From assembly GCA_944376905.1 (NCBI GenBank), contig CALWEA010000001.1, positions 144,487 through 208,486 on the forward strand: a stretch of DNA of 64,000 nucleotides. The letters run 5' to 3'. The translations under genes were made by a program, and so were the position numbers. The notes under the pieces are model-generated. The model saw nothing but the letters and a program-made list of their open reading frames with translations, made no database searches and was not told the DNA's origin. Positions 3,170 to 37,786 of this stretch are shown here, piece by piece. Within the stretch, counting starts at the first letter, position 1. Each line of letters opens with the position of its first letter. The stretch comes from an uncultured Clostridia bacterium (GTDB taxonomy: Bacteria > Bacillota > Clostridia > Christensenellales > UBA1242).

Positions 3170-3850
3170 ATGAATAAAATATTGGTTATTGAAGATGATA
3201 AAATGCTTAATGAAATGATTGCTGAGATTTTAATAAAAAATGATTTTGAGGTTGATTGTTGTTTTAATGGTGAAATGGCCTTGAAAAAAATGGAGCATGA
3301 GTGTTATTCCTTAATTATTTCTGATATCATGATGCCTGTAATGGATGGATTTGATTTTATCAGTCAAGTAAGAAAAAACAATAAATTTTTGCCTGTTTTA
3401 TTTATTAGTGCAAAGTCTTCTTTTGAAGATAAACAAAAAGCATTTGAAAGCGGTATAGATGATTATATGGTTAAACCTGTTGATTTAAACGAATTATTAT
3501 TGCGTGTTAATGCATTATTGAGAAGAGCGAAAATTTCTGTTGATAAGAAAATAATTTTTGGAAAAACTGTTCTTGATTATGATTCTTTTGTTGTTTTAGT
3601 TGATAATAATCCTATAAATTTAACACAAAAAGAATTTTTATTACTTTTTAAATTACTCTCTTATCCTAATAAAATTTTTACTCGTCGACAATTAATGAAT
3701 GAAATTTGGGGATTGGAAAATGAAAAGACAGGAAGGACTGTTGATGTTCATATTACAAAACTTCGCGAAAAGTTTTCAAATAACAATGATTTTGAAATAG
3801 TAACAATTCATGGTTTGGGTTATAAAGCAATCAAAAAAAGAATTATTTAA
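3170..3850 (+). CDS. OmpR/PhoB-family response regulator
   Basis: Receiver domain (N-terminal EDD, ...SDIMMPVMDG..., ...KPVD...) plus winged-helix output (LTQKEFLLLFKLL, GRTVDVHITKLREK, GLGYK). RBS AAAGG upstream of the ATG. Confidence 0.9.
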   Translation: MNKILVIEDDKMLNEMIAEILIKNDFEVDCCFNGEMALKKMEHECYSLIISDIMMPVMDGFDFISQVRKNNKFLPVLFISAKSSFEDKQKAFESGIDDYMVKPVDLNELLLRVNALLRRAKISVDKKIIFGKTVLDYDSFVVLVDNNPINLTQKEFLLLFKLLSYPNKIFTRRQLMNEIWGLENEKTGRTVDVHITKLREKFSNNNDFEIVTIHGLGYKAIKKRII

Positions 3851-3898
3851 TCTATAAAACAATAAAAAAATATTTGATTTATAAAGGAATTTTCAACT

Positions 3899-5164
3899 TT
3901 GGATAAAAAAATAAATTTTGGTTTAAAATTTTTAATTAAAAATAAAAAATATCAAAATAAAATAAAAAAAAGTAAGTATAACATTAAAAGAGCCTTTAAG
4001 AAATGTAAAATCAATCAAAAAGGGGATAATATACTTAAAAACAATTTAGATGTTAATTATATTATAAATAATCAAAAGAAATCAAACAAAAAAAGAAGGA
4101 AATCTTTTATTTTTAAATTAATTTTATTGGTTTTATCTGCCATTTTTGTTACTGTTGCCATTTATTCTTTTTTTTCTTATTTGTTTTTTAAAAACTTTGA
4201 ACAATATTTTTCGCAGTTTGAAATTTTGGGTATAAAAGCGAGTCCTATTATAATTTTGGTTTTTATATTTTTAATTAGTACATTATTAGGTTGTGTTTTA
4301 TCTTTAATTATGATTAAGGGTTTTTATAAGCCAATTAATAAATTAAAAAATGCTATGAATAAAGTTTCAAAAGGTGAGTTTGAGAAAGTTGAAAATAATA
4401 ATAGTGATGACGAGATTGCGGAACTTATTGAGATATACAACAAAATGGTTAGTGATTTGAAAAATATGGAAATAATTTCTAATGATTTTGTTTCTGCTGT
4501 GTCGCATGAAATAAAAACGCCTTTGAGTTCAATAAAAGGTTATGCGTCTATGTTAAAAAATCAAGATATTAGCAAAGATGAAAAATTAAAGTATATTAAT
4601 AAAATTTTAATAGCAACAGATAATTTGTCTAACTTAACTAATAACATATTAAATATTTCTAAAATAGAAAACACTGCTTTAATTAAAAATAAAAATTTTT
4701 CATTAGACGAACAACTTCGAGAATGTATTCTCCTTTTGGAAAATAAATGGTCAGAAAAAAATTTAAACTTAGTTATTAATATAGAACCTATTAATATTTT
4801 TTCTAATAAAGAACTTTGTCAAAGTGTTTTTGTCAATATTCTAGAAAATGCAATTAAATTTACACCAACTAACAAAAATATTAAAATTAATCTTTTTAAA
4901 ATTTGTAAAAATAGTAGTGATTATGCAGTTTTTGAAGTACATGATTCTGGGGTTGGTATTTCTCAAAAGAATTTAACTAGGATTTTTGATAAATTTTTTC
5001 AAGCCGATTCATCAAGAATGACAGAAGGTAATGGTCTGGGACTTGCTTTGGTTAAAAAAATAATGGATAGATTAAATGGTATAATTGAAGCTGAAAGTTC
5101 GCTTGGAATTGGAAGTTGTTTTAAAGTATATTTTCCCTTAAATAAAAAAAATAAAAAATCTTAA
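3899..5164 (+). CDS. Sensor histidine kinase (HisKA + HATPase_c), partner of the preceding regulator
   Basis: H-box SAVSHEIKTPLSSIKGY, N-box ILENAIKFTP, G-boxes HDSGVGI and GNGLGLALVKKIM, with two hydrophobic helices before a HAMP-like linker. TTG start after AAAGGA. The start is uncertain (Lys-rich 70-aa N-terminus). Confidence 0.85.
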   Translation: MDKKINFGLKFLIKNKKYQNKIKKSKYNIKRAFKKCKINQKGDNILKNNLDVNYIINNQKKSNKKRRKSFIFKLILLVLSAIFVTVAIYSFFSYLFFKNFEQYFSQFEILGIKASPIIILVFIFLISTLLGCVLSLIMIKGFYKPINKLKNAMNKVSKGEFEKVENNNSDDEIAELIEIYNKMVSDLKNMEIISNDFVSAVSHEIKTPLSSIKGYASMLKNQDISKDEKLKYINKILIATDNLSNLTNNILNISKIENTALIKNKNFSLDEQLRECILLLENKWSEKNLNLVINIEPINIFSNKELCQSVFVNILENAIKFTPTNKNIKINLFKICKNSSDYAVFEVHDSGVGISQKNLTRIFDKFFQADSSRMTEGNGLGLALVKKIMDRLNGIIEAESSLGIGSCFKVYFPLNKKNKKS

Positions 5165-20140: not shown

Positions 20141-23100
20141 ATGTTGGAAAATAAAGGAAAAAAATTAAAAAAAATTGATTTAAGTAAAGTTTTTGCTTCA
20201 TCTACTTACAAGGATATTGAAGATTATATGAATACTAATAAAGACGCAATAGCGATGTTTGATTATGGTGCTCCTGAATTTTATTCATCAGAGCAAATTG
20301 TCAATCGTTTTCAAACATTGGCAGACCCTCAATACCAAACTCATTCTAGTCTTCGAAATAATTGGTCTGCAAATGATGGTAGAAGTCATTTTCAAAAAAT
20401 TGATAATGCCAATAACTATATCAATGATATGGTTAATTCGTTCGTATTAAAAGACAATCTTTTTAATTTAGATAGCGTAACTTTTCCTCTTCGTGGCTCT
20501 CTCTTCGATATTAATAATAATTATTTTCAATCAGGTGATATAGGTGAGGATAAATATAACTTTATAAAAAATCAGTTTAAAAACTCTTTTAATATTTCTT
20601 TAATTGATGGTGCTGTTTCTAAAAATATTATTCAAACAAAACTTGGATTGATTGAAAAAATTAATCAAATTGTTACTTCCAAAATTAAATCAGTTGGTAA
20701 AATTTATAAAAAATTAATAAAGCCAGTTGTTCCTGACATGATTAATTGTAATTTAAAGTCAAAACCTTCAAAATATTTTCGCCCTAAAACATTAGTTTTA
20801 AGTAATGGAAATGCCAATACTAAATTTACATCAGCAGATAAAATTGTTGCACTTGTTGATTATTTTACTGGAAAATCTATTCAATTGTACGAAGATGAAG
20901 GTGCTGAAAAATTTGGAGAAACACCAAATCCAACCAAGGCAAAAGAAGCCTCACAACTTTTGGCAAATATTTTTGTTTGTCAAGCGTTGGATATGGGCGG
21001 AAATGGAGAAGCAAATAGAAAAGTAGACAATGCTTTAAAACTACAATTTTCTAACGAGATAGCATGTTTAAGTGATTTTTCTAAAAATGATTTTGATATT
21101 ATTGCAGTTGCTGCACACAATGCAACAACTAATGTTTTGCGACATCTTGGTTTAAGTTTTGATAAAATAATTGAAAATCGTCAAAAATATTTAGGGCAGT
21201 CTTATATGGATAATATTGATTTAACTGATTCTCGTAATGTATTATTTGGCAGAACTAAAGATAATAAATTTCAATTGGAAAAAGAGCCAGTTGTTAATAT
21301 GGAATCTGGGGCAGTAGAAGAAAAAAATAAAATTTATTATGTTGGTGAAAGTTCATTTTTTGATAAATACATAATTCGTGACAATGAACAAATATTAGAA
21401 GATTCAGTTCCAAGAGAAATAAATAATAAAAATATTGTTAGTGATTTATCAAACGAGTCTAATCATCAAAACATACAAAAAGAAGAATCTAATAGTGATA
21501 TTATCACAACAAAAGACACTCCTTTAAAAGATATTGCTTCTTTTGACTTAATTGATACCAATGAACAAAATAATCTTGAAACAAATGCAAAAGAAAATAT
21601 ACAAGAAAGAGATGAAAGTGAAAATATTAAAACTACAATTAGTGAAGAGCCAATTGAAACAGATAAATTTGATTTGAATGAAAAAGTTGAAAAATTCAAT
21701 AATTATGAGTCATTTGATAATCAAACATTTCCTACTGCTGATGATAATGGTTCTATACAAAATGCTGATTATAAGATTTTATATAGTGATGTTCCAAGTA
21801 ATGTGCCAGAACAGAATATTGAAAGTGAAAAAGATGTGGGTGATATTGTTATAAAAGAGTCTCAAAATGCAGATTATGAGATTGTACATGGTGATGTTCC
21901 AAGTAATGTGCCAGAACAGAATATTGAAAGTGAAAGAGATGTAAGTGATATTGTTGTGACAGAGTCTCAAACAAAAGCGTCTGAGGAAGATTTAAAAAAA
22001 TTAAATGATTTAGAGTTGAGAGATGATTGGGGCTTTTATAATCCAGATACAAATAATGACAATGACAATTTACAAGATATTAAAAAGTATAACATTGAAA
22101 CAGAAGTTGAAAAGGACAAAGTCAACAAAGAAGAAATTAGTAAGGGAGAGGATAAAATGAATGAATTTATTGAAATATTAAAAAATCAAATGGCAAATCA
22201 GGAAGTTTACAATGCAACTCAAATAGGCCTTTTATCTCAAATTTTAACTGAATTGGAAGAATTAAAGGAAAATAATAAAAATTTGGAAATAATTCCAATT
22301 GAAAATAAAGTTAAAGAAGATGTACACGAAAACTTGGATAATGAAGATAAAGCAGAAAATATGTCAAATGAAATTAAAAATTCTTCAAATAAACCTTTAA
22401 AAATAGTTAATGGTCAACTTTATGTTGCTTCTCCAAACTTAACTTCTGATAATATCAAAGATGAAGATTATCAAAAAGTTGTTGTTTCACAAAAAGCGTT
22501 AAATTCTAGACGCAAACAAAATATAAAAAATTTTAAAGACAATTATAAAGATTATCTTGATAATGAAAATAAAAAACAAACTAGGTTAGATGATTTTATT
22601 AAAAAAGAATTAACCGCTGAAGAGAAAATTAAAATTTTAAATGACCTATTGGAACAATTTGGCTATAATATTAAAATAACAGATAAAGAACAAATCAGAT
22701 TGGTTGATTATGATGATATGTATAAAAAAGTTGAAGAAGCGGAAAATGGTAAATTAAATTTTGTAAAAAATGCAGTTAATAATTTAAAAGATAACAATTT
22801 AAATGATATACCTTATTCAAAAGAAAATGCAGAAAGACTTTCTAAAATAGCGGAAAAAAATCCTTTTGATGTAGAAAGAATACTAAATGCAAAAAATCAA
22901 GAATTTTCTTATAATGATGTTAAAGAAATGGTAAAAGAAAATAATCAAAAATCTAAAGAGTTAATATCTTCTTTAACAGGCAACAATAATTCTGTTGTAA
23001 CTAATATTTATAAAAAATTAACAACAACACCTGAATTTGATGCTAAGAAAATTTTGGAAAATATAATTGCAGAAAAGAAAGCAAAAGAAAAAGAAGAATT

Positions 23101-24442
23101 TTATCAAAGATATAAAAATGCATCTAATAAGCTTCGTCAGCAAAAAATTTCAAAATCAGTTAATTTTGCAAATAGTGAAGAATTAAAAAATTTAACTCAT
23201 GAAGAAGTTGCAACTAATTTAGACAACCAAAACGCATCTGTAACATCATCTTCTCAAAATATTCAACAATCTAATGAAAGTATTGACACTAATAACGACT
23301 GCGTGGAAAGTGGAAATGTTGTTGACTTAAATGATGAATTAAAAAATGAGATTAACCAAAAATTAAAATTGGCGATTTCTTCTAGTTTGGCGTTAAAAGA
23401 AAGACTTGGAGAAAATTGTATTAAAAAAACTGGAACTAAAATTGAAGTTGATACTTTAAAAGCAAAAATTATTACAAATAATCCTAATTATACAGAGAAA
23501 TCAGTTAGAGCAGAAATTGATAAAAAAGTTAAAATTGTCATTGATGAGTTTAAAAATACAAATTTAAAAGTTAAAAATAATCAATTTAATAAAATATTAA
23601 CAAAAAAATCTAAAGATGGAGTTGAAAATAGTCAATCAAACTTTTCAAATAAACCAAACGGAATAGAAAGAGGTGTTGCCGATTGGTTGGGTGATATTTA
23701 TTGCTCTCCTGCTTTTAAGATTGATAATTATTTAAATGTTCCAGATGCAAAATTAGCAAAAGAAATTTCTTTAAAATTTGATGATGTTGTTGAAGATGTT
23801 TATAATACTGTTCTAGAAAATAATAGAGTTTTGCCTAAAATTGTTGATGGTAAACGAGTTAGTATGATTATGTATATTAATAAAACAATACAAAATTTAA
23901 ATGAAGAAGAGGATATAAAAAATAAAGATTTAAAATCATACTTAAAATATAAATTAAATGCAATAGTTGATTTGGTTAAAAACAGTAAAACAAGCAATGA
24001 TGAAACTGACAGCAATTCTAATTCTCAATCAAACAAAAAAATATCAAGTAAAAAGAAGTTGCAAGATTTACAATTGTCAAATAGCGTTCAAATGGAAAAT
24101 GCTTTATGTGAAGAAAATGTTGAATCTGAAACATCAAAAAAAGAAGATGAAAAACCTACGGAAATAATAACTGAAAGTAAAGAAATTGAATGTAAAACAG
24201 AGGAGAAAAAAGAAAAAAATATTTTATATGAAAATGAAGTTGATGTTTCTTCTGAAAAGGCTAAAAGATTAGATAACGCAGTTGTCAAAACAGAAAATGA
24301 AAAATCAAAAAAGAAAACTCTTAAAAAGGTTAGTTCAAAGAAAAAACTTGATAAATCTTTAATAAAAGTTAAAACAAAAGAATCTTCTAATAAATCTAAA
24401 TCCAATTCTAATTCTAAAAAAGATGATACATTAACTAAATAA
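20141..24442 (+). CDS. Giant (1433 aa) acidic/Lys-rich low-complexity ORFan; no signal peptide or TM detected
   Basis: Uninterrupted ORF with RBS AAAGGAG. The first ~400 aa look globular; the rest is E/K/N-rich and coiled-coil-like. I recognise no motif. Confidence 0.75.
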   Translation: MLENKGKKLKKIDLSKVFASSTYKDIEDYMNTNKDAIAMFDYGAPEFYSSEQIVNRFQTLADPQYQTHSSLRNNWSANDGRSHFQKIDNANNYINDMVNSFVLKDNLFNLDSVTFPLRGSLFDINNNYFQSGDIGEDKYNFIKNQFKNSFNISLIDGAVSKNIIQTKLGLIEKINQIVTSKIKSVGKIYKKLIKPVVPDMINCNLKSKPSKYFRPKTLVLSNGNANTKFTSADKIVALVDYFTGKSIQLYEDEGAEKFGETPNPTKAKEASQLLANIFVCQALDMGGNGEANRKVDNALKLQFSNEIACLSDFSKNDFDIIAVAAHNATTNVLRHLGLSFDKIIENRQKYLGQSYMDNIDLTDSRNVLFGRTKDNKFQLEKEPVVNMESGAVEEKNKIYYVGESSFFDKYIIRDNEQILEDSVPREINNKNIVSDLSNESNHQNIQKEESNSDIITTKDTPLKDIASFDLIDTNEQNNLETNAKENIQERDESENIKTTISEEPIETDKFDLNEKVEKFNNYESFDNQTFPTADDNGSIQNADYKILYSDVPSNVPEQNIESEKDVGDIVIKESQNADYEIVHGDVPSNVPEQNIESERDVSDIVVTESQTKASEEDLKKLNDLELRDDWGFYNPDTNNDNDNLQDIKKYNIETEVEKDKVNKEEISKGEDKMNEFIEILKNQMANQEVYNATQIGLLSQILTELEELKENNKNLEIIPIENKVKEDVHENLDNEDKAENMSNEIKNSSNKPLKIVNGQLYVASPNLTSDNIKDEDYQKVVVSQKALNSRRKQNIKNFKDNYKDYLDNENKKQTRLDDFIKKELTAEEKIKILNDLLEQFGYNIKITDKEQIRLVDYDDMYKKVEEAENGKLNFVKNAVNNLKDNNLNDIPYSKENAERLSKIAEKNPFDVERILNAKNQEFSYNDVKEMVKENNQKSKELISSLTGNNNSVVTNIYKKLTTTPEFDAKKILENIIAEKKAKEKEEFYQRYKNASNKLRQQKISKSVNFANSEELKNLTHEEVATNLDNQNASVTSSSQNIQQSNESIDTNNDCVESGNVVDLNDELKNEINQKLKLAISSSLALKERLGENCIKKTGTKIEVDTLKAKIITNNPNYTEKSVRAEIDKKVKIVIDEFKNTNLKVKNNQFNKILTKKSKDGVENSQSNFSNKPNGIERGVADWLGDIYCSPAFKIDNYLNVPDAKLAKEISLKFDDVVEDVYNTVLENNRVLPKIVDGKRVSMIMYINKTIQNLNEEEDIKNKDLKSYLKYKLNAIVDLVKNSKTSNDETDSNSNSQSNKKISSKKKLQDLQLSNSVQMENALCEENVESETSKKEDEKPTEIITESKEIECKTEEKKEKNILYENEVDVSSEKAKRLDNAVVKTENEKSKKKTLKKVSSKKKLDKSLIKVKTKESSNKSKSNSNSKKDDTLTK
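21761..21970 (+). repeat. In-frame tandem duplication (2 x 105 nt = 2 x 35 aa) inside the giant ORF
   Basis: NADYKILYSDVPSNVPEQNIESEKDVGDIVIKESQ / NADYEIVHGDVPSNVPEQNIESERDVSDIVVTESQ. Confidence 0.9.
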
Positions 24443-24655: not shown

Positions 24656-24674
24656 TATTAGGAGTTGTTTGTTT

Positions 24675-24941
24675 ATGAAAACGGTTTGGGAAGGAATGAG
24701 TGATGTAACAAGAAGAAAAATTTTAACACTTCTTAGAAATGGTAGTATGACGGCAGGAGAAATATGTAGTTATTTTGATTCTCGTCCGGCAACTATAAGT
24801 CATCATTTAAGTATATTAAAAGAATCTAATTTGGTAACGGCTGAAAAGAAAGCGCAAGTCATAACATACAGTTTAAATGTTGATGTTTTGCAATCAATGA
24901 TAAAAAAATTAACAGCATTTATTAATAATAGAAATGTTTAA
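24675..24941 (+). CDS. ArsR/SmtB-family (SdpR-like) winged-helix transcriptional repressor
   Basis: DVTRRKILTLLRNGSMTAGEICSYFDSRPATISHHLSILKESNLVTAEKKAQVITYSLN. ATG 24675 follows AGGAG. Confidence 0.85.
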   Translation: MKTVWEGMSDVTRRKILTLLRNGSMTAGEICSYFDSRPATISHHLSILKESNLVTAEKKAQVITYSLNVDVLQSMIKKLTAFINNRNV

Positions 24942-25022
24942 TTTTTATTTTAAAAAACATTTATATTATCACTTTAAAATTTAATAAAATTACATAAAAA
25001 CAAATAATTTTGGAGGTTATAA

Positions 25023-25736
25023 GTGAAAAATGATATTTGCATGCTGGGTTTATCTTTAATTAATTTTATAGGTTCTTTAATTGTTATATTTTTAATGCCT
25101 AATATTGTTCCTATTCATATCAATATTGATTTAGTAATAGATGCTATGGGGTCAAAATGGATTAATTTGGTTTGGGCTATTATTCCTCTTTTGTTTGTCG
25201 GTTCAATGCTTTTATTTAAGCATAAAGTCGGAAATAATTTGCAAAATATTAAATCTTTTAATGCAACTATGATAGTTTTGTGTGTTTTTTTTATCTATTT
25301 AAATTGGGTTTGGCTATTTTTTACAAATTCAAATTTGCAGTTAGGTGAGAAAATAAATGTTCCTATTTCTTTGATTGTTGGTATGCCTATTGGAATTTTG
25401 TTAATTTTTATGGGTTATTTACTTCCTTATATTAAGCAAAATAAATTTTTTGGGATAAAATTGCCTTCAACATTAAAAAATGAAAAAGTTTGGAATGAGA
25501 CTCATAAATTTAGTGGAATTGTATGGATTTATACTGGTTTTATTATTATAATTTCCGCTTTAATTTGTCATGTTTTAAATGAAAATTTAATTTTTATAAT
25601 AATAATGTGTTCTTGTTTGTTGATTTTAGTTATTTTAATTCCTACAATTTATTCAATTAAAATTCAAAGTAAAATATCTAAGGATAAAATTGTTTGTGGA
25701 ACTTGTGATGAAGATGTTTCAAATGAAAAAAAATAG
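25023..25736 (+). CDS. SdpI/YhfL-family membrane protein (DUF1648 + SdpI-like)
   Basis: Multi-pass membrane protein with NKFFGIKLPSTLKNEKVWNETHKFSG, matching the SdpI motif N..GiR.p.tl...e.W...h...g. Paired with an SdpR-like repressor. GTG start after GGAGG. Confidence 0.7.
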   Translation: MKNDICMLGLSLINFIGSLIVIFLMPNIVPIHINIDLVIDAMGSKWINLVWAIIPLLFVGSMLLFKHKVGNNLQNIKSFNATMIVLCVFFIYLNWVWLFFTNSNLQLGEKINVPISLIVGMPIGILLIFMGYLLPYIKQNKFFGIKLPSTLKNEKVWNETHKFSGIVWIYTGFIIIISALICHVLNENLIFIIIMCSCLLILVILIPTIYSIKIQSKISKDKIVCGTCDEDVSNEKK

Positions 25737-25952: not shown

Positions 25953-26639
25953 ATGAATGGTATCTTATTTTTAATTATATTTTCTTTAATAATGTTTACA
26001 ATATTTTTCTTTGCTAGACATTTTTGGGGAAAGGACGCATTGTTTGTTGTTGGAATTGGTTGTGCAATTGGTTCCAATTTATATAATATTAATAATTATC
26101 CAATTATTATTGGTGATTTTGTTTTTGGTATGGATGCGGTTATTTATACCATTTGTATTTTTACAATGTTAATTATGTATATTGATTTTGGTGAATCTAG
26201 TTTAAAAAATATTTTATTTAGCACTTTGGGTTCATTATTTTTAACCGCATTATTATCCTTTGCGGGCAATTTTATGCTTTCTGGAATAACAAAAGATTTA
26301 ATTTGGAATTTCGTTTCTTACTTATTTAGTATTTTGGGGACATTGGTTGCTGTTTATATAATGATAATAATTTATAAAAAGTTAAATTCTTTAAAATTTA
26401 ATAATTATTTTAACATTGCAGTTGGATTATTTCTTGCGAGCATAGTTAATTCAATAATTTATTTTGGTTTAACATTTATTGTTTTAGGCAATTTGGGACA
26501 GGAATTTTTGATGGCTTTAATTAGTTCTTATATTTTAAAATTTACAGCAATAGTAATATGTATGTTGGCTTATTTGTTGGAGAGTGTGTGGGTGAATAGT
26601 AAAAAAAATAATAAAAAAAATGAAAATAAAAATGTATGA
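25953..26639 (+). CDS. Multi-pass membrane protein, possibly VUT/YhhQ (queuosine-precursor transporter)-like
   Basis: 228 aa, about six TM helices. Only weak resemblance to YhhQ (C-terminal SY..K...Y.L pattern), so the function call is tentative. Confidence 0.6.
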   Translation: MNGILFLIIFSLIMFTIFFFARHFWGKDALFVVGIGCAIGSNLYNINNYPIIIGDFVFGMDAVIYTICIFTMLIMYIDFGESSLKNILFSTLGSLFLTALLSFAGNFMLSGITKDLIWNFVSYLFSILGTLVAVYIMIIIYKKLNSLKFNNYFNIAVGLFLASIVNSIIYFGLTFIVLGNLGQEFLMALISSYILKFTAIVICMLAYLLESVWVNSKKNNKKNENKNV

Positions 26640-26781: not shown

Positions 26782-27942
26782 TTAAATTTTTTCATAACCA
26801 AACCGATTGGTATAATTAAATTTAAAATTGCTTGGAATTTCTAGTTGCTTTTTGTTTAGATTGTAAAAATATTGGAATGTTGAAAATGATCTTATTGTAG
26901 TGTTTTGATAATATAAAACTATTTCTTCATCAATATCTAAATTTAACTGTATTTTTCCTGCTAAAGAAATTAGACCTTTTAATTTAGTTTTTCCACCAAT
27001 TTTAACTTCATCATAAATTTGTATTGATGATTTAGTGTTTCCGTTAATTTCTGCATTATCGCTAATTACTACATTATTAGTAATTTTAACATTACCTGTT
27101 ACTTTGGCATTATCTTTTATAATAGCATTGTCTTCAACTTGAATAGAGCCTTCTAATATTGCACATCCCTTTATTTGTGTATTATTTTTTATAAGTGAAT
27201 TTCCATTGATAAATGCATAATTGTAAATTTTTGCTGAATTTGTTATTTTTGAAAACCCTAAGACAAATGCTTTGTTAAATATTTGGGCATCATTTGTTAC
27301 ATATGCGTCTTGAAAAACCATTGCATCATCAAAAACACAAGCATTGTCGGAAACAACAGCATCATCTAGAATTTTTGCATTACCCCAAACTTTTGCATTT
27401 TTTCTAACAATACAAAAACCATTTTGACTTAAATTGTTTTCAGATTCCAGCCAACCACCCAATGTTCCTTTCTTAGTCTTTTCATTTATATCTTTGCAAT
27501 ATTGTATTCTGTGTAAAGTAACTGTTTTTTGTTCGTTGGTTGTGGGGTCTATATAAACATGCTGTAAGGTATTTTCTTCGCCCTCAAGCAATATATATTT
27601 TTTATCATCATCTTCTTCAATTTCAGTATCTGGTTCAATAACATCATGATTATTTTTATTAAGATGTGTCTGTAATTCATCGTTTTTACTATTGTCATCA
27701 ACTATTTCATAAGTTTTGTCTATTTTAGAATAATTTTCAATATTTTGATTAGTTAAATTATCTGATGGGGCAGTGTTGTTTTCCAAATTATTATTATCAT
27801 CAGATATCAAAGACAATTTTTCTGTTGTTAAATCTTTGTCTGTATTTTGTTGTTCACTTTTTAAAACTTGTTGAGTTGAATTCGTAGCATTTATTTTTTT
27901 TAATTTTGAAAATTTACTTTTTATAATTTTTAACAAATCCAT
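26782..27942 (-). CDS. YdcK-like left-handed beta-helix (hexapeptide-repeat) protein, paralogue 1
   Basis: Core TVTLHRIQYCKDINEKTKKGTLGGWLESENNLSQNGFCIV, then repeats of the form (D/G)NAxVxx. Resembles the E. coli YdcK N-terminal pattern (L.R..A..D....KG..GGW.....LSQ.G.CW). Has an extra N/D/E-rich insert of about 85 aa. Confidence 0.7.
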   Translation of the reverse strand: MDLLKIIKSKFSKLKKINATNSTQQVLKSEQQNTDKDLTTEKLSLISDDNNNLENNTAPSDNLTNQNIENYSKIDKTYEIVDDNSKNDELQTHLNKNNHDVIEPDTEIEEDDDKKYILLEGEENTLQHVYIDPTTNEQKTVTLHRIQYCKDINEKTKKGTLGGWLESENNLSQNGFCIVRKNAKVWGNAKILDDAVVSDNACVFDDAMVFQDAYVTNDAQIFNKAFVLGFSKITNSAKIYNYAFINGNSLIKNNTQIKGCAILEGSIQVEDNAIIKDNAKVTGNVKITNNVVISDNAEINGNTKSSIQIYDEVKIGGKTKLKGLISLAGKIQLNLDIDEEIVLYYQNTTIRSFSTFQYFYNLNKKQLEIPSNFKFNYTNRFGYEKI

Positions 27943-28150
27943 AATAATTCACCGTTTAATGTTTTTTTAATAGTATTTTTTATAATTTAAAATATTTATA
28001 TAAATTAATTTTCTTTAAAATTTAAACTGCTTTATTTATTGTTAACTATTTTATCTGTCAAGTTTTTTATATGAGAATAAATAATAACTTACTTTTTTTA
28101 CAAAATTTTAATAAGTTAATAAAATTTGTTCAAATTTTTTTAGTTTTACA

Positions 28151-29119
28151 TTATTTAACATTGTTATATTCTTTTTTGGCAATTTTTAAAGTTTTTTTCA
28201 AAAGATTATCATAATTCTCAACTTTTTTCTCATTCAAAACTGCTGAATTGTTATAAACTTCTGTATCATCAAAAACTGCTGAATTCTCATAAACTTCTGC
28301 ATTACCACAAACTTTTGAATAATCAAAAACTCCGGCATTACCATAAACTTTTGCATTACCATTAATTTCAGCATTATCATAAATTCCTGCACTGTCAAAA
28401 ATTTTTGCATTACCGCAAATTTTTACATAATCAAAAATTTCGGCATTACCATAAACTTTTGCATTACCAAAAACTTTTGCATTACCGAAAACACTTGCAT
28501 TACCACAAACTTCTGCATTACCGCAAATTTTTACATAATCAAAAACTTCTGCATTATCATAAACTTTTGCATTACCATTAATTTCAGCATTATCATAAAT
28601 TCCTGCACTGCCACAAACTTCTGCATTACCGCAAATTTTTACATAACCAAAAACTTTTGCATTACCATAAACTTTTGCATAATCAAGAACTCCAGCATTA
28701 CCGCAAATTTTTACATAATCAAAAACTTCTGCATTACCATAAACTTTTGCATAATCAAGAACTCCGGCATTACCGAAAACTTTTGCATTACCAAAAACTT
28801 TTGCGTCATTTTCAACAGTGCAAAAGTTTTTTTGACTTAGATTATTTTCAGATTCTAGCCAACCACCTAATGTTCCCTTTTTTATATTTTCATTTATATC
28901 TTTGCAATATTGTATTCTGTGTAAAGTAACTGTTCTTTGTTCGTTGGTTGTGGGGTCTATATAAACATGCTGTAAGGTATTTTCTTTACCTTCAAGCAAT
29001 ATATATTTTTTTTCATTTTTTTCATTTTTTTCAATTTTTGAAACTTGTTGAGTTGAATTCGTAGCATTTATTTTTTTTAATTTTGAAAATTTACTTTTTA
29101 TAATTTTTAACAAATCCAT
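28151..29119 (-). CDS. YdcK-like beta-helix protein, paralogue 2 (very regular GNAxVx hexapeptide array)
   Basis: Same first 26 aa and same core as paralogue 1, followed by about 35 consecutive 6-aa (18-nt) repeats such as GNAKVFGNAGVLDYAKVYGNAEVFDYVKICGNAEVCG. Confidence 0.7.
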   Translation of the reverse strand: MDLLKIIKSKFSKLKKINATNSTQQVSKIEKNEKNEKKYILLEGKENTLQHVYIDPTTNEQRTVTLHRIQYCKDINENIKKGTLGGWLESENNLSQKNFCTVENDAKVFGNAKVFGNAGVLDYAKVYGNAEVFDYVKICGNAGVLDYAKVYGNAKVFGYVKICGNAEVCGSAGIYDNAEINGNAKVYDNAEVFDYVKICGNAEVCGNASVFGNAKVFGNAKVYGNAEIFDYVKICGNAKIFDSAGIYDNAEINGNAKVYGNAGVFDYSKVCGNAEVYENSAVFDDTEVYNNSAVLNEKKVENYDNLLKKTLKIAKKEYNNVK

Positions 29120-29302
29120 AATAATTCACCGTTTAATGTTTTTTTAATAGTATTTTTTTATAATTTAAAATATTTATATAAATTAATTTTTTTTAAAATT
29201 TTAACTGCTTTTTTTATTGTATATTAACTATTTTAATTGTCAAGTTTTTTTGCTTGTTATGAGATGAAAGAACAATTTTCAACTTTTTAAAAAAGTATTT
29301 TT

Positions 29303-30376
29303 TTATTTTGTTTGTTCCATATTGTATTTGGAGGAATAAAGTAGGGTTGTATTTGGAGTTGTGTTTATTGTTTTTATTAAACTTTTTTTATTTGAATTTT
29401 CCAATGTTATTATTTCAACATCTTTAAGTTCTTGATTGAGTTCTTGACAATGCAAATCTGTTGTTAAGTTACCATTTCCGTGTATGTAACTTTTTCCTAA
29501 AATTGTTAATTTTCCGTTCAAATTAGGATTGTCATGGATAATGGTTTCTCCGCCGATAACAAGTTGTCCTGATAATTTTCCTCCAATTATTTGGCAACTA
29601 TCCTTAACAATTACATCATCTTGAAGTGTTACTGATTTATCAATTGATGCTTCATCTTGTACAATACAATTATCTGTTACTATTGTTTGGCCACAAACTC
29701 TACTTTTTCCTAAAACTTTTACATTGTTAGATAAATAAGCGCGTCCGCAAACATGAGCGTTTTGTGCTATAATACAATTATCGTGTAATTGTGCGAAATC
29801 ATCTAATTGAGAGTTATCTAATATGGCTGAATTTCCATACATTTTTGCATTTCCGCCAACCTTTCCGCCTAAAACTTTCGCGTTGCCATAAATCAAAGCA
29901 TTGCCACTAACTTGCCCACCCAATTTGTTTATAACCATTGCGTTTTTAAATATCCAGCAATTGCCATCTTGACTAAGAGCGTCTTGATTGTCAACCCAGC
30001 CTCCTAAATCACCTTTTTTTATATTTATTTCTGGTATATCTCTTATTGCCATAATTCTAAAAAGTTTAATTTTTTTTAATTTATTAAATGGTTGTTGGGT
30101 TAAAGGATTTATTAGTTCAAGTTCTTGATAAGTTGGAATTGTCATCTTGAAACGACCAACTCTAAAAGTAATGGGATTACTAACAATAACATATTTTAAT
30201 AATTTGTCATTTTCGTTTTGTATAATTTCATTAACGCTATTAATTTCATTTGTTGTTTTTGTGTTGCTTGATTGATTATTAATAGACATTTTATTAATAT
30301 CATATTTTTGTAATTCGCCTTGAACAAGTGATTTAGATTTTAATGATGTTTTTTTTGAAAATTTTTTTCTTTTCAT
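29303..30376 (-). CDS. YdcK-like beta-helix protein, paralogue 3 (divergent)
   Basis: LFRIMAIRDIPEINIKKGDLGGWVDNQDALSQDGNCWIFKNAMV, then GNAxxYGNAKVLGGKVGGNAKMYGNSAI repeats. Confidence 0.7.
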   Translation of the reverse strand: MKRKKFSKKTSLKSKSLVQGELQKYDINKMSINNQSSNTKTTNEINSVNEIIQNENDKLLKYVIVSNPITFRVGRFKMTIPTYQELELINPLTQQPFNKLKKIKLFRIMAIRDIPEINIKKGDLGGWVDNQDALSQDGNCWIFKNAMVINKLGGQVSGNALIYGNAKVLGGKVGGNAKMYGNSAILDNSQLDDFAQLHDNCIIAQNAHVCGRAYLSNNVKVLGKSRVCGQTIVTDNCIVQDEASIDKSVTLQDDVIVKDSCQIIGGKLSGQLVIGGETIIHDNPNLNGKLTILGKSYIHGNGNLTTDLHCQELNQELKDVEIITLENSNKKSLIKTINTTPNTTLLYSSKYNMEQTK

Positions 30377-30896
30377 AAATACTCCAAACTTTTTGTAATA
30401 TTATTTTAACACCTTTTTAATTGATATTAAAAATCTTGCGTTATACTTATTTTATCAAACTAATTAAACATTTGTTTTATATCTACTTAAATATCCATTT
30501 ATATATCATTTTATATATTTCATCTATGAGTTGTTAAATTGATTATTATATAAACTATTTTAAATTTTAAATTTTTAAATTAATTTATTTACTAATTTAA
30601 AATCAATTGTATGACATTATTGGTAAATGATTTATTTTAATTTACATAATTAAAATCAAATCAATAAATATGATTTAAGATGAAAATGAATATTGTTTAA
30701 GATTAAAGTATTTAAGTTGCTTGATTACATAATTAATTAAATATCAACTAAAATATTCATCAAAATTAATATTGTTCTATAACATACTTTCATTTTATCA
30801 TAAATTCAACAAAAAATCAATAGTCACAATTTTTGATTATTTAATTTGATTATTTAAATAGAAGAGTAAAAAAATATAAAATAAAATAAAAAACTA

Positions 30897-30925
30897 TTGA
30901 CTTTATATTGTTTTTATGTTAAATT
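30897..30925 (+). promoter_or_regulatory. Sigma-A promoter with extended -10, about 270 nt upstream of rpsL
   Basis: TTGACT 30897-30902, 17-nt spacer ending in TGt, TAAATT 30920-30925. Confidence 0.6.
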
Positions 30926-31128
30926 CATTCCGTAAAGATTATTTCTTTACCAAAAAGTTGTCTTGGCTTTTTGAAAACTTTAACGGCAGGTGTTGTTATT
31001 GTGAATTGAATTTTAAATTTGTGTTGAATCTAGGTTTCAAGTGAAATTTAAATATTTTGCAAAACAATTCATTAAACACTGAGTATGTTCGTGAAGTTTT
31101 TACTTTTTAATCGCCATAAAACTTTTTG

Positions 31129-31167
31129 ATGAATTGAAATAAAATTTTCAATTCATTTTGTTTTTTT
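31129..31167 (+). terminator. Terminator/attenuator hairpin inside the rpsL leader, 28 nt before the start codon
   Basis: ATGAATTGAAA-taaaat-TTTCAATTCAT (perfect 11-bp stem) followed by TTTGTTTTTTT. Confidence 0.6.
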
Positions 31168-31195
31168 ATAAATATTCTGTAAAGGAGGATAAACT

Positions 31196-36628: not shown

Positions 36629-37786
36629 TTAGTGATGACAACCACAATCGCAAGAATCATCACAGCAATCATCATTGCATTCGTCGCAATCACAACCATC
36701 AAATTCAACAACTGTTAAATCTTGAATAAAACTTGGAGTTGGCATTTTTTCAGTTGTTATATAACCTGGTATGCTATCTAATAAATCTGCAATTCTATTA
36801 ACAACTGTTGCACAAGTTAACTCAACTGTTTGTGGACGGTCAACAACAATGCTTGTTGTTGGTTCTCCTTCAACTGTCCATTGGTTGCTATCAAATTCAT
36901 CAGGAGCATAAACCTTGCCAATACATTGTGTTTCAATAACAATACCTTCTTCTGTTTCAGTTGTTACGACGGCACTCATTCCAGTTGCGTCACCCGCTTT
37001 TATTGTCATGCCTAATGTTGAACTTTGTAAATCAGAATTGTGTGTTTGTGGCACACATTTTTGAGTTTGTTTTTTAACAGTGAGTCCCAAATGAGAAGCA
37101 AGCCAACCGTTAGTGTTCCACATATAACTTGGCAAAAATTCACCTTTTTCAATTAAGTTTTGTCGTTCTTCTTCTGAAATATTATCTGCGGACGCTATTT
37201 CTTTTTCAAATTCTTTTAAAGTTAAACCGGCCCCATGTGCTTTTGCAAGAGCGATACCGTAATCTTCAACATTATATGAAGTTTTGCCAATTATTTTTTT
37301 AATACTTTGTGTTGATGATGCAATGGCAGTTATTAAATTTCCCCAATAAATATCCTGATACCCAGAGCCACAAATTGTACAATTATTTTCAATAGCGGTT
37401 TTATTAATTTCTTCTGTTATTTTAGGATTACTATTCCAAGGATAAAACGCTTCTTCGCAAGTTGTTATTGCATTAATTCCTAATTTTGCCAGACGAAGTA
37501 AAGTTGGACCAACATCGCTCATCAAACTCATAGTTGCAACAATGCAAACATCAGGACAAGTTTTTTGAATTTCTTTTTCTAGTTCATCTGCATGTTTAAT
37601 AACAATTCCAATTTTTTTATAGTTATTTCCTATAATCTCAGCAATGTCTTTTCCAATAATATCAGGCGAAATATCAAATGCACATACTATTTCACCTTTT
37701 TTTTCTAATACATATCTCATAAGATAAGCAGACATTTTGCCACATCCAAACATGGCAACTTTAAGTTTTCTTGTTTTTTCTTCCAA
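36629..37786 (-). CDS. DapB-N-like NAD(P)-dependent amine dehydrogenase (2,4-diaminopentanoate dehydrogenase-like) with a Cys/Asp-rich C-terminal tail
   Basis: Rossmann start LKVAMFGCGKMSAYLMRYVLEKKGEIVCAFD. TTG start after GGGAGG. C-terminus GCDCDECNDDCCDDSCDCGCHH. Family assignment is by resemblance only. Confidence 0.6.
   Translation of the reverse strand: MEEKTRKLKVAMFGCGKMSAYLMRYVLEKKGEIVCAFDISPDIIGKDIAEIIGNNYKKIGIVIKHADELEKEIQKTCPDVCIVATMSLMSDVGPTLLRLAKLGINAITTCEEAFYPWNSNPKITEEINKTAIENNCTICGSGYQDIYWGNLITAIASSTQSIKKIIGKTSYNVEDYGIALAKAHGAGLTLKEFEKEIASADNISEEERQNLIEKGEFLPSYMWNTNGWLASHLGLTVKKQTQKCVPQTHNSDLQSSTLGMTIKAGDATGMSAVVTTETEEGIVIETQCIGKVYAPDEFDSNQWTVEGEPTTSIVVDRPQTVELTCATVVNRIADLLDSIPGYITTEKMPTPSFIQDLTVVEFDGCDCDECNDDCCDDSCDCGCHH

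Follow-up and report, generated by a model that had tools for sequence, protein, structure and literature searches.

Three adjacent minus-strand genes, which we term A, B and C, in a 64,000-nucleotide stretch of DNA from an uncultured Clostridia bacterium (the window) encode members of the YdcK-like superfamily, defined by a characteristic N-terminal domain (N-domain) followed by a left-handed beta-helix (LbH) solenoid and corresponding to PHROG families 5070 and 7964. The middle gene, B, is present in some strains of the species and absent from others, and its in-frame repeats are reshuffled between strains. We tentatively favour a reading in which the three products would be paralogous, cytoplasmic and non-enzymatic beta-solenoid rods of the YdcK/PHROG-5070 family, possibly acting as a scaffold tethered through a KFSK-containing tail.

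The ORF list places the three genes side by side exactly where the initial annotation had put them, with A (386 aa) at 26782-27942, B (322 aa) at 28151-29119 and C (357 aa) at 29303-30376, all on the minus strand, and with 208, 183 and 819 bp of intergenic space upstream of A, B and C respectively. Their position between an SdpI-like membrane locus and the str operon was likewise confirmed: one flank carries an SdpR-family repressor (NF033789, 100.5 bits, cutoff 100) and SdpI (PF13630, E 1e-18) and the other carries rpsL-rpsG-fusA-tuf. The locus lies outside any prophage and the SdpRI-to-str-operon synteny is kept in all strains. An operon with SdpRI or with a neighbouring gene for a 228-aa membrane protein was considered and rejected because both lie on the opposite strand and are convergent with the cluster. 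As first described, none of the three proteins has a transmembrane or signal-peptide-like segment, the maximum Kyte-Doolittle 19-mer scores being 0.84-0.97 compared with 2.8-3.3 for the neighbouring membrane proteins.

A YdcK-type N-domain and hexapeptide solenoid in all three proteins

The relationship to Escherichia coli YdcK put forward in the initial annotation is supported by several comparisons. The NCBIfam model YdcK_fam (NF040481) matches all three proteins at about 1e-24 to 1e-25, ranging from E 6.6e-24 for A to E 1.7e-25 for C, with bit scores of 84.4, 89.4 and 89.7 for the three copies, and the alignment is good only over profile positions ~17-143 in each of them. As the equivalog test for this model asks for at least 350 bits over the whole protein on a 326-position profile, scores so far under the cutoff make A, B and C relatives of YdcK and not orthologues. 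The YdcK crystal structures 2f9c and 2pig are matched at about E 2e-16 (C to 2f9c, E 2.4e-16), E. coli YdcK aligns to B at E 4e-17, and the YdcK peptide quoted in the initial annotation agrees with the PDB alignment. PHROG 5070 gave E values of 4e-47 for A, 2.4e-76 for B and 9e-53 for C, and matches to PHROG 5070 and 7964 taken together span E 1e-40 to 1e-76 across the three copies.

In order to compare folds we used an AlphaFold2 (AF2) model of residues 30-125 of B, which cover the N-domain (pLDDT 92.6). Foldseek superposed this model on 2pig and 2f9c at E 1e-5 with a probability of 1.00, an rmsd of 2.0-2.1 Å over 83-84 columns and 32% identity; YdcK was the sole match in the PDB, the next entry standing at E ~1, and the sole matches in BFVD were uncharacterised phage proteins. 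A search with the full-length model of C also placed YdcK at the top, with E 0.04 and TM 0.24, values that are uninformative because the register of a solenoid is ambiguous, a difficulty solved by using the N-domain-only model. The left-handedness of the solenoids is assigned by homology to YdcK and not from the models; the solenoid of C was modelled by AF2 at pLDDT 84-95.

Motif alignment bears out the description of a common core followed by hexapeptide runs in all three proteins. The signature LxRI...GxLGGW...NLSQxGxC is present in A, B and C; the core reads LHRIQYCKDINE..KKGTLGGWLESENNLSQ..FC in both A and B and LFRIMAIRDIPEINIKKGDLGGWVDNQDALSQDGNCW in C. The solenoid follows directly on the N-domain and is recognised in B by PF18836 (B_solenoid_ydck, 36.2 bits, cutoff 30) and in A by Pfam Hexapep (PF00132, 41.9 bits, cutoff 27), with C just under the Hexapep cutoff at 26.4 bits. 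B consists of a KFSK tail, a short linker, the N-domain (residues about 37-103), a solenoid (residues 104-296) and a basic C-terminal tail. A has the same N-terminal tail, then an acidic low-complexity linker (residues 27-113, pI 4.4), the N-domain (residues 114-180), a degenerate solenoid (residues 181-335) and a unique non-repeat C-terminal region (residues 336-386). In C a basic KFSK tail and disordered region (residues 1-53) precede a small beta domain and the YdcK-type N-domain (about residues 60-145), a degenerate hexapeptide solenoid (about residues 146-312) and a C-terminal tail.

YdcK of E. coli and Salmonella (NF040481, 2F9C/2PIG, PF18836) is likewise encoded by a standalone gene, has no assigned function and consists of a ~60-aa N-terminal beta domain with the pattern L-x-R-I...G-x-x-G-G-W...L-S-Q-x-G-x-C leading into a left-handed hexapeptide helix. 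Unlike YdcK, the window proteins carry a basic KFSK tail and 10-90 aa of disordered linker before the domain, A and B are missing the conserved Trp after the Cys, the solenoids differ in length with perfect repeats in B, and there are three copies rather than one. A partial match also connects C with the Svx/AvrXca family (NF040510), whose C-terminal positions 465-536 align to the N-domain and first helix turns of C at E 3.5e-10, so that the module is also found attached to a secreted virulence-associated protein; however the score of C, 39 bits, is far from the cutoff of 625 and the N-terminal body of Svx is missing here.

Hexapeptide repeats raise the question as to whether the proteins are LpxA-like acyl- or acetyltransferases. 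RefSeq labels E. coli YdcK a 'putative acyltransferase' and, alongside the Hexapep matches, models for LpxA, LpxD, NeuD, GlmU and CysE give weak matches, but these reach just 20-41 bits against cutoffs of 160-300 and cover repeat units only, so that the profile search assigned none of the three to a well-characterised acyltransferase, an outcome that would have spoken against the initial annotation. In alignments of 60, 43 and 139 sequences the invariant and near-invariant columns are confined to the N-domain, and no invariant solenoid column was seen in those of 43-139 sequences, a lack of conservation that holds family-wide. The solenoid of B is built of 32 contiguous perfect hexapeptides with no loops or insertions able to form a pocket and no His, and there is no His in the solenoid of A. 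The length of the solenoid is free to vary, and relatives carry modules joined end to end; the YdcK PDB entries contain 2 chains each, which neither supports nor excludes a trimer. Since only the cap domain is conserved and the solenoid is a loop-less rod without a conserved His, we infer that A, B and C are not acyltransferases and consider such an activity very unlikely. The same distribution of conservation argues against the 'acyltransferase' annotation propagated in databases.

Presence, absence and reshuffling of copy B

The three genes had been described as a single tandem triplication, which the alignments contradict. A and B are near-identical in their promoter, first 26 codons and N-domain and have unrelated solenoids, and C is only 26% identical to A. 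The 5' module of A (27864-28100, minus strand) comprises a promoter-like TTGACA box, a ribosome binding site (RBS) and the first 26 codons, and that of B (29041-29302, minus strand) a sigma-70-like site, an RBS and the first 26 codons; the predicted site in B, TTGACA-16-TACAAT at 29243-29216, matches 11/12 positions and is the region's best. The longest exact run common to the two modules is 118 nt, starting from 27864 in A and 29041 in B, and single nucleotide differences between them form a mosaic. The 5' module common to A and B is recently homogenised, and C is an old paralogue.

The A and B modules form direct repeats on both sides of the B body. Comparison of about 13 assemblies of the species showed B in 4 (the window, L002, L063 and L064 only) and its absence in 9, so the three-copy arrangement is not invariant, and in strains without B a B-type promoter is joined straight to an A-type body. 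Collapse of the repeats during assembly was ruled out as the origin of the two-copy form by the behaviour of Logan k=31 contigs, one of which (L011) spans the two-copy locus unbroken while those of B-carrying strains (L003-5, L065) end at the first exact A/B repeat of at least 31 nt. The presence/absence polymorphism is thus real, and the simplest explanation for how B is gained or lost is that the near-identical 5' modules of A and B recombine with each other.

Within B, the solenoid is encoded by an in-frame tandem DNA array at 28255-28804 (minus strand), which has periods of 18, 36 and 108 nt and contains the repeat families D1-D5; Tandem Repeats Finder (TRF) reports period 108 in 4.8 copies (81% matches, score 643) and period 36 in 15.3 copies. 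This array is a substrate for repeat reshuffling, and the hexapeptide order of the B solenoid does differ in L002. Since all B repeats are multiples of 18 nt, the length of the protein changes and its reading frame does not. Short-read assemblies break at in-frame 18-nt repeats of this kind, which have also been mis-annotated as CRISPR spacers in public records of Vibrio phages.

The two outer copies behave differently. Every full-length cluster member listed for C has 357 aa, and pN/pS for this copy is 0.21 overall and 0.10 in the solenoid. Strain variants of A range from 344 to 417 aa and differ in the disordered linker only, the solenoid length being constant, and pN/pS for A is 0.14; for comparison, tuf gives 0.04 and the neighbouring membrane gene 0.27. 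A and C, including their solenoids, are under purifying selection. The rapid divergence of repeat length proposed initially therefore holds between the paralogues and for B, but not for A or C.

These data bear on a further explanation, in which the cluster would be a contingency or antigenic-variation locus that joins a common 5' expression module to alternative solenoid cassettes at the 3' end, with repeat slippage tuning a surface-exposed protein. The common promoter, N-terminus and N-domain of A and B with their differing 3' bodies would suit such a system, as would the strain-dependent repeat order of B, its loss from most strains and the mosaic differences between the modules, which suggest gene conversion. 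However, signal peptide, transmembrane segment and anchor are all absent, the direct repeats are capable of deletion only, no invertible segment, recombinase or silent cassette was found near the locus, and A and C are stable. The on/off mechanism raised by the initial annotation is not indicated because every repeat is an in-frame multiple of 18 nt, and we consider a contingency locus very unlikely.

Phage relatives, the KFSK tail and a possible role

The family is large. A phmmer search with the 71-aa N-domain of C returned 3,760 cluster representatives (50% identity) from E. coli, Bartonella, Saccharibacteria, gut Firmicutes and many phages. Tandem or multi-copy relatives occur in Saccharibacteria, Christensenellaceae, Bartonella and large phages, and fused relatives with 2-4 N-domain and solenoid modules are common. 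As this habit is family-wide, the three-gene cluster is not the lineage-specific expansion it was taken for; tandem clustering and multi-module fusion together suggest that neighbouring paralogues work together.

Homologues are found in 72 phage records, with several copies in large phages. The best profile matches, with E down to 2e-76, are uncharacterised PHROG 5070/7964 proteins such as Sfi19 orf229, phiRM10 gp34 of an R. gnavus phage and the 'hexapeptide repeat transferase-like' protein of Bacillus phage phiAGATE, which have the same architecture and are often multi-copy. These phage genes begin at the N-domain whereas the window genes add a tail and linker, and they occupy early or accessory phage regions whereas A, B and C lie on the chromosome outside any prophage and keep their synteny from strain to strain. 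In S. thermophilus CHPC919/Sfi19, Javan318, phiRM10, LfeInf, phiXacJX1 and Vibrio 1.139.B they are placed among early or unknown genes, neighbouring cro/antirepressor, Gam, Erf, Rad52 and replication genes and never structural modules.

Such a setting is no less suited to interaction with a host than to a housekeeping scaffold, and it is possible, if on balance unlikely, that A, B and C are domesticated members of a phage or mobile-element family engaged in virus-host conflict (counter-defence, superinfection exclusion or decoy), binding or masking a host or phage target with the solenoid as a variable recognition surface and B as a strain-specific variant. The strength of the PHROG matches and the variable presence of B speak for this, as do single relatives fused to ART-PolyVal and to DUF3310 and the closest non-self relatives of C, which lie beside RusA and GmrSD_N on contigs of 236-248 kb whose genes are mostly unannotated. 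Set against it are the fixed, constrained A and C with their constant solenoid length and the chromosomal synteny described above. No PADLOC-DB 2.0 defence-system model matched A, B, C or two neighbours, and no partner gene was enriched among 149 neighbour ORFs in 13 genomes. The net charges of the solenoids (-8, +2 and -2) are inconsistent, which excludes DNA mimicry as a property of all three. The conflict-related role suggested originally is thus plausible from phage context and finds no counterpart in defence models or conserved partners.

The tentatively favoured scaffold reading starts from the N-terminal tails. KFSK occurs 3 times in the 16.5k aa of window ORFs, each time within the first 13 residues of A, B or C, and none of 289 other sampled family members has FS[KR] among its first 30 residues. 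Rather than sitting at the very start of the protein, the motif occupies residues 5-8 or 10-13 and reads KFSKLKK in A and B and KFSKKTS in C, within the first 16 residues and not at position 1-7. In A and B the tail is amphipathic (muH 0.55, net charge +5), a muH value reached by 3.9% of shuffles; that of C is basic but not significantly amphipathic. The abundance of Lys, Phe and Ser in a 25% GC genome counts against the significance of KFSK. Bactofilins are targeted to the membrane by the consensus MFSKKKK, in which the F and the lysines are critical (PMC12448750), and this motif is similar to the KFSK(L/K)K in the tails of the window proteins. Bactofilins (PF04519), which are nucleotide-independent membrane-bound polymers, and A, B and C are alike beta-helical rods that have ~18 residues in each turn and end in flexible tails. 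However, the bactofilin helix is right-handed, has ~6 turns and no YdcK cap domain, and carries its targeting motif at the very N-terminus; given the handedness and the missing cap no homology is implied. The Pfam Bactofilin matches (A, 27.8 bits against a cutoff of 27.9; C, 16.3 bits; B, none) probably reflect repeat periodicity.

Each protein has four parts: a lineage-specific basic tail with K-F-S-K invariant in all three copies, a disordered linker very different in length between copies, a conserved ~60-aa YdcK-type beta domain that may cap and nucleate the helix, and a left-handed hexapeptide beta-helix of variable length. On the scaffold reading the tail may tether the rods to the cytoplasmic side of the membrane, much as MFSKKKK does for bactofilin, which is the least certain step, and the rods would then serve as structural or scaffolding elements, possibly self-associating, with C and A as fixed components and B as a dispensable, length-variable one. 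An extension by the same analogy, which we consider improbable, is that in this uncultured low-GC lineage YdcK-type solenoids acquired a bactofilin-like KFSK membrane-targeting tail and became cytoskeletal or scaffold rods that attach to the membrane and need no nucleotide, a new class without homology to bactofilins, whose composition and rod length strains tune through gain, loss and reshuffling of B.

The YdcK-like family is very large and, with a crystal structure dating from 2005, still has no known function; we found no functional study of YdcK or PF18836 in the literature, where E. coli mentions are confined to expression-network lists. The locus is a fairly ordinary example of this large "dark" family. 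Should none of the hypotheses hold, it is an ordinary paralogue cluster of hypothetical proteins. Three facts from the locus are of use: conserved positions lie in the cap domain rather than the solenoid, paralogues cluster or fuse in ways that suggest joint action, and one lineage carries an added membrane-targeting-like tail. This tail offers a cheap, testable localisation hypothesis and, if a new class of membrane-attached rods were indeed present, it would give the first mechanistic handle on the whole YdcK/PHROG-5070 family.

Locus and flanking genes

The initial annotation described three consecutive minus-strand ORFs, and we place these at exactly its positions, A at 26782-27942 (386 aa), B at 28151-29119 (322 aa) and C at 29303-30376 (357 aa), each with the proposed core motif and the hexapeptide repeats downstream of it. 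An HMM of the YdcK-type beta domain ahead of the solenoid (N-domain) finds only these three copies over the 64 kb. The region is ordinary chromosome of ~25% GC that also holds PhoBR-like genes, ftsA, ftsZ, hflX, murA, dnaB and pheT. On one flank an SdpR-family autorepressor and SdpI-family membrane protein pair (within 24669-25736, plus strand; NF033789, at cutoff for SdpR) and a multi-pass 228-aa membrane protein without a family match (25953-26639, plus strand) run convergently with A, on the strand opposite to the YdcK-like genes and with synteny kept in every strain. The other flank of the cluster is formed by rpsL-rpsG-fusA-tuf. An upstream region of ~200 bp had been assigned to each gene, which holds for A (208 bp) and B (183 bp) but not for C, which is divergent from rpsL across a gap of 819 bp. 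This non-coding interval (30377-31195; 16-22% GC) is unusually long, no Rfam family reaches its gathering score within it, and long intergenic regions occur throughout the window. A hydrophobic segment is absent from all three proteins, in agreement with the earlier statement that they lack a signal peptide or transmembrane helix, with maximum Kyte-Doolittle 19-mer values of 0.84-0.97, the two adjoining membrane proteins having values of 2.8-3.3.

Family membership and architecture

The assignment to YdcK was right, as the NCBIfam model YdcK_fam (E 6.6e-24 for A, 1.9e-25 for B and 1.7e-25 for C), the Salmonella YdcK structures 2f9c/2pig (E 2.4e-16, the quoted YdcK peptide being visible in the alignment), E. 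coli YdcK (E 4e-17 with B) and the N-domain model all agree. This model, built from B, superposes on 2pig/2f9c with an rmsd of 2.0-2.1 Å over 83-84 columns (probability 1.00), and a structural search of the PDB with it returned no match below E ~1 besides YdcK. The YdcK_fam scores of 84-90 bits compare with an equivalog cutoff of 350 bits and the alignment covers only profile positions ~17-143; A, B and C are relatives within the YdcK superfamily, not orthologues of YdcK. PHROG 5070 and 7964, two families without an assigned function, match best (E down to 2e-76). In Pfam the N-domain is not modelled, and matches are confined to Hexapep, the YdcK solenoid repeat and, near threshold, Bactofilin. 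The family itself is already known from NCBIfam, a Pfam repeat, PHROGs and PDB entries; what is new here is the copy-number polymorphism, the conservation of the cap only, the habit of tandem or fused modules and the KFSK tail.

Each protein consists of four parts, a basic tail, a low-complexity linker predicted to be disordered (~10 aa in B, ~87 aa and acidic in A, ~45 aa in C), the ~60-aa beta domain and a hexapeptide solenoid, so that a cap domain and solenoid are combined with a tail and linker specific to the lineage. The sequences of A and B start with MDLLKIIKSKFSKLKKI and that of C with MKRKKFSKKTSLKSKS. In the AF2 model of C residues 1-53 are disordered and are followed by the small beta domain and a solenoid of pLDDT 84-95, and for B residues 30-125 the modelled pLDDT is 92.6. 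The solenoid of B is an unbroken run of 32 hexapeptides (~10.7 turns at 18 residues each) that lacks both insertions and His. It is specified by a tandem array in the DNA (28255-28804), in frame and with periods of 18, 36 and 108 nt. Those of A and C are degenerate, and A ends in a unique, non-repeat region of 50 aa. Opposite the B array a repetitive 90-aa antisense ORF ('HYHKLLHNQ...'; 28657-28929, plus strand) follows mechanically from the tandem repeat and does not indicate a gene.

Hexapeptide solenoids raise the question of whether these proteins are acyltransferases, which is unlikely. In the profile search proposed as a check on the initial annotation, models of characterised transferases (LpxA, LpxD, NeuD, GlmU, CysE) reach no more than 20-41 bits, their cutoffs being 160-300. 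We infer that A, B and C are not acyltransferases because the solenoid has no conserved positions and B forms a featureless rod.

The idea of a single tandem triplication did not survive comparison of the copies. A and B are near-identical in promoter region, RBS, first 26 codons and N-domain, with a longest exact common run of 118 nt, but their solenoids are unrelated and the long linker is confined to A, while C is just 26% identical to A. Gene conversion is suggested within the common A/B module by its SNPs, which form a mosaic pattern across A, B and strains.

Variation between strains and selection

Clustering at 90% identity places C in a group of 27 sequences, where the full-length members among those listed are all 357 aa and one further entry is a 125-aa fragment. 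Members of the A cluster range from 344 to 417 aa, differing in length in the linker only (an 81-nt duplication and a 12-nt indel), and their solenoids are essentially identical. The pN/pS ratio is 0.21 for the whole of C (0.19 in the N-domain, 0.10 in the solenoid, about 1 in the tail) and 0.14 for A, with values of 0.04 for tuf and 0.27 for the 228-aa membrane gene; A and C are kept by selection.

The exact B sequence was not found in the protein collection searched. By DNA comparison B is present in the window and in three further records (L002, L063, L064) and absent from nine assemblies (L001, L006-L011, L067, L068), in which C is directly followed by an A-type gene under a B-type promoter. 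Assembly collapse was rejected as the cause, as a Logan (k=31) contig, L011, spans the two-copy locus unbroken; Logan contigs of B-carrying strains (L003-5, L065) end at the first exact A/B repeat of at least 31 nt. The hexapeptide units of B follow another order in L002 than in the window, with a scaffold gap at the same place, and several contigs end within the repeat. Variation in B is based on four assemblies, two of them with gaps. B is an accessory copy; long direct repeats lie on either side of its body, which consists of in-frame tandem repeats. The rapid repeat divergence reported earlier holds between the paralogues and for B but not for the family members as a whole, C being constant in length and A varying in its disordered linker; the rapidly varying parts are therefore B and the A linker. 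That the cluster acts as a contingency locus, a reading to which the variable B lends itself and the constant C does not, is unlikely.

Other differences between strains were seen nearby. A 1433-aa ORF (20141-24442, plus strand), rich in Asn, Lys and Glu, of low complexity and with internal near-repeats such as NADYKILYSDVPSNVPEQNIESE, has no match in Pfam or PADLOC; its position is kept across strains at a length of 1433 or 1468 aa, with scaffold gaps interrupting some assemblies. In one assembly (L010, 19514-20569) an rve-family transposase, missing from the window and the other strains, lies between this gene and its upstream neighbour. A 385-aa ORF (36629-37786, minus strand), distantly similar to 2,4-diaminopentanoate dehydrogenase (NF040740, 119 bits; cutoff 400), is split in two (206 + 164 aa) in another, L009.

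Habits of the family and a possible role

At E<=1e-3 a 71-aa query from the C N-domain retrieved representatives of 3,760 clusters formed at 50% identity. Among the top 149, over half carry 2-4 modules of N-domain plus solenoid per chain and almost none has further domains, the exceptions being single fusions to ART-PolyVal, DUF3310 and DUF5758. A genome scan for KKGDLGGW found Bartonella (many), Saccharibacteria/Nanosyncoccus, Oxalobacter, Christensenellaceae, Acidaminococcaceae and others, frequently with tandem or clustered copies (4 at a Saccharibacteria locus, 3 at a Christensenellaceae locus, up to 5 in Bartonella). In 13 non-Bartonella genomes the neighbours are a mixture of housekeeping and prophage genes, and a Pfam census of 149 neighbouring ORFs showed no enriched partner. 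A literature search found no functional study of the YdcK-like family.

Homologues also occur in 72 phage records, some with 4-5 copies, and structural hits in BFVD comprise nothing but uncharacterised phage proteins. Inspection of six phages placed the gene amid early or unknown genes, where in some it adjoins cro, antirepressor, Gam, Erf, Rad52 or replication genes; it was never inside a structural module. These early positions, together with the ART-PolyVal fusion of one relative, speak for a phage-derived conflict function, the main rival to the reading preferred below and somewhat less likely than it. Against this rival, the locus is stable, syntenic and outside any prophage, is under purifying selection and matches no defence model (PADLOC returned nothing for A, B or C).

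Vibrio phage 1.139.B (L058, MG592511.1) has 'CRISPR spacers' annotated inside its YdcK-like gene (3833-4636), which is itself split into two CDS, and other Vibrio phage records are annotated likewise; these spacers are almost certainly mis-called periodic 18-nt repeats encoding hexapeptides. The closest non-self relatives of C (~30% identity, 585-610 aa) are on two mostly unannotated ENA contigs of 236-248 kb, L060 (7223-10746) and L062, which may represent a jumbo phage or another dark genome. On L060 a GmrSD_N protein precedes the relative, a second YdcK-like gene follows it and RusA is nearby.

The tail offers a further lead. When A, B and C are aligned, K-F-S-K stands out as an invariant block, the remainder of their N-terminal extensions being unrelated, and the motif occurs just three times in the window ORFs (16.5k aa), always in these tails. 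In a sample of 289 other family members no sequence contains FS[KR] within residues 1-30, and most start directly at the N-domain. The A/B tail is amphipathic (net charge +5; muH 0.55, a value reached by 3.9% of shuffles), and that of C is basic without significant amphipathicity. The block resembles the global consensus for membrane targeting in bactofilins, MFSKKKK, in which F2 and the lysines are critical (PMC12448750), although it is internal in A, B and C and the right-handed bactofilins are not homologous to them.

Our preferred reading, held tentatively, is that A, B and C are rods which the basic tail keeps at the membrane, where they would serve as structural or scaffolding elements, possibly acting together, as is suggested by relatives that fuse several modules. 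The locus provides one cheap, testable hypothesis for a family already catalogued.
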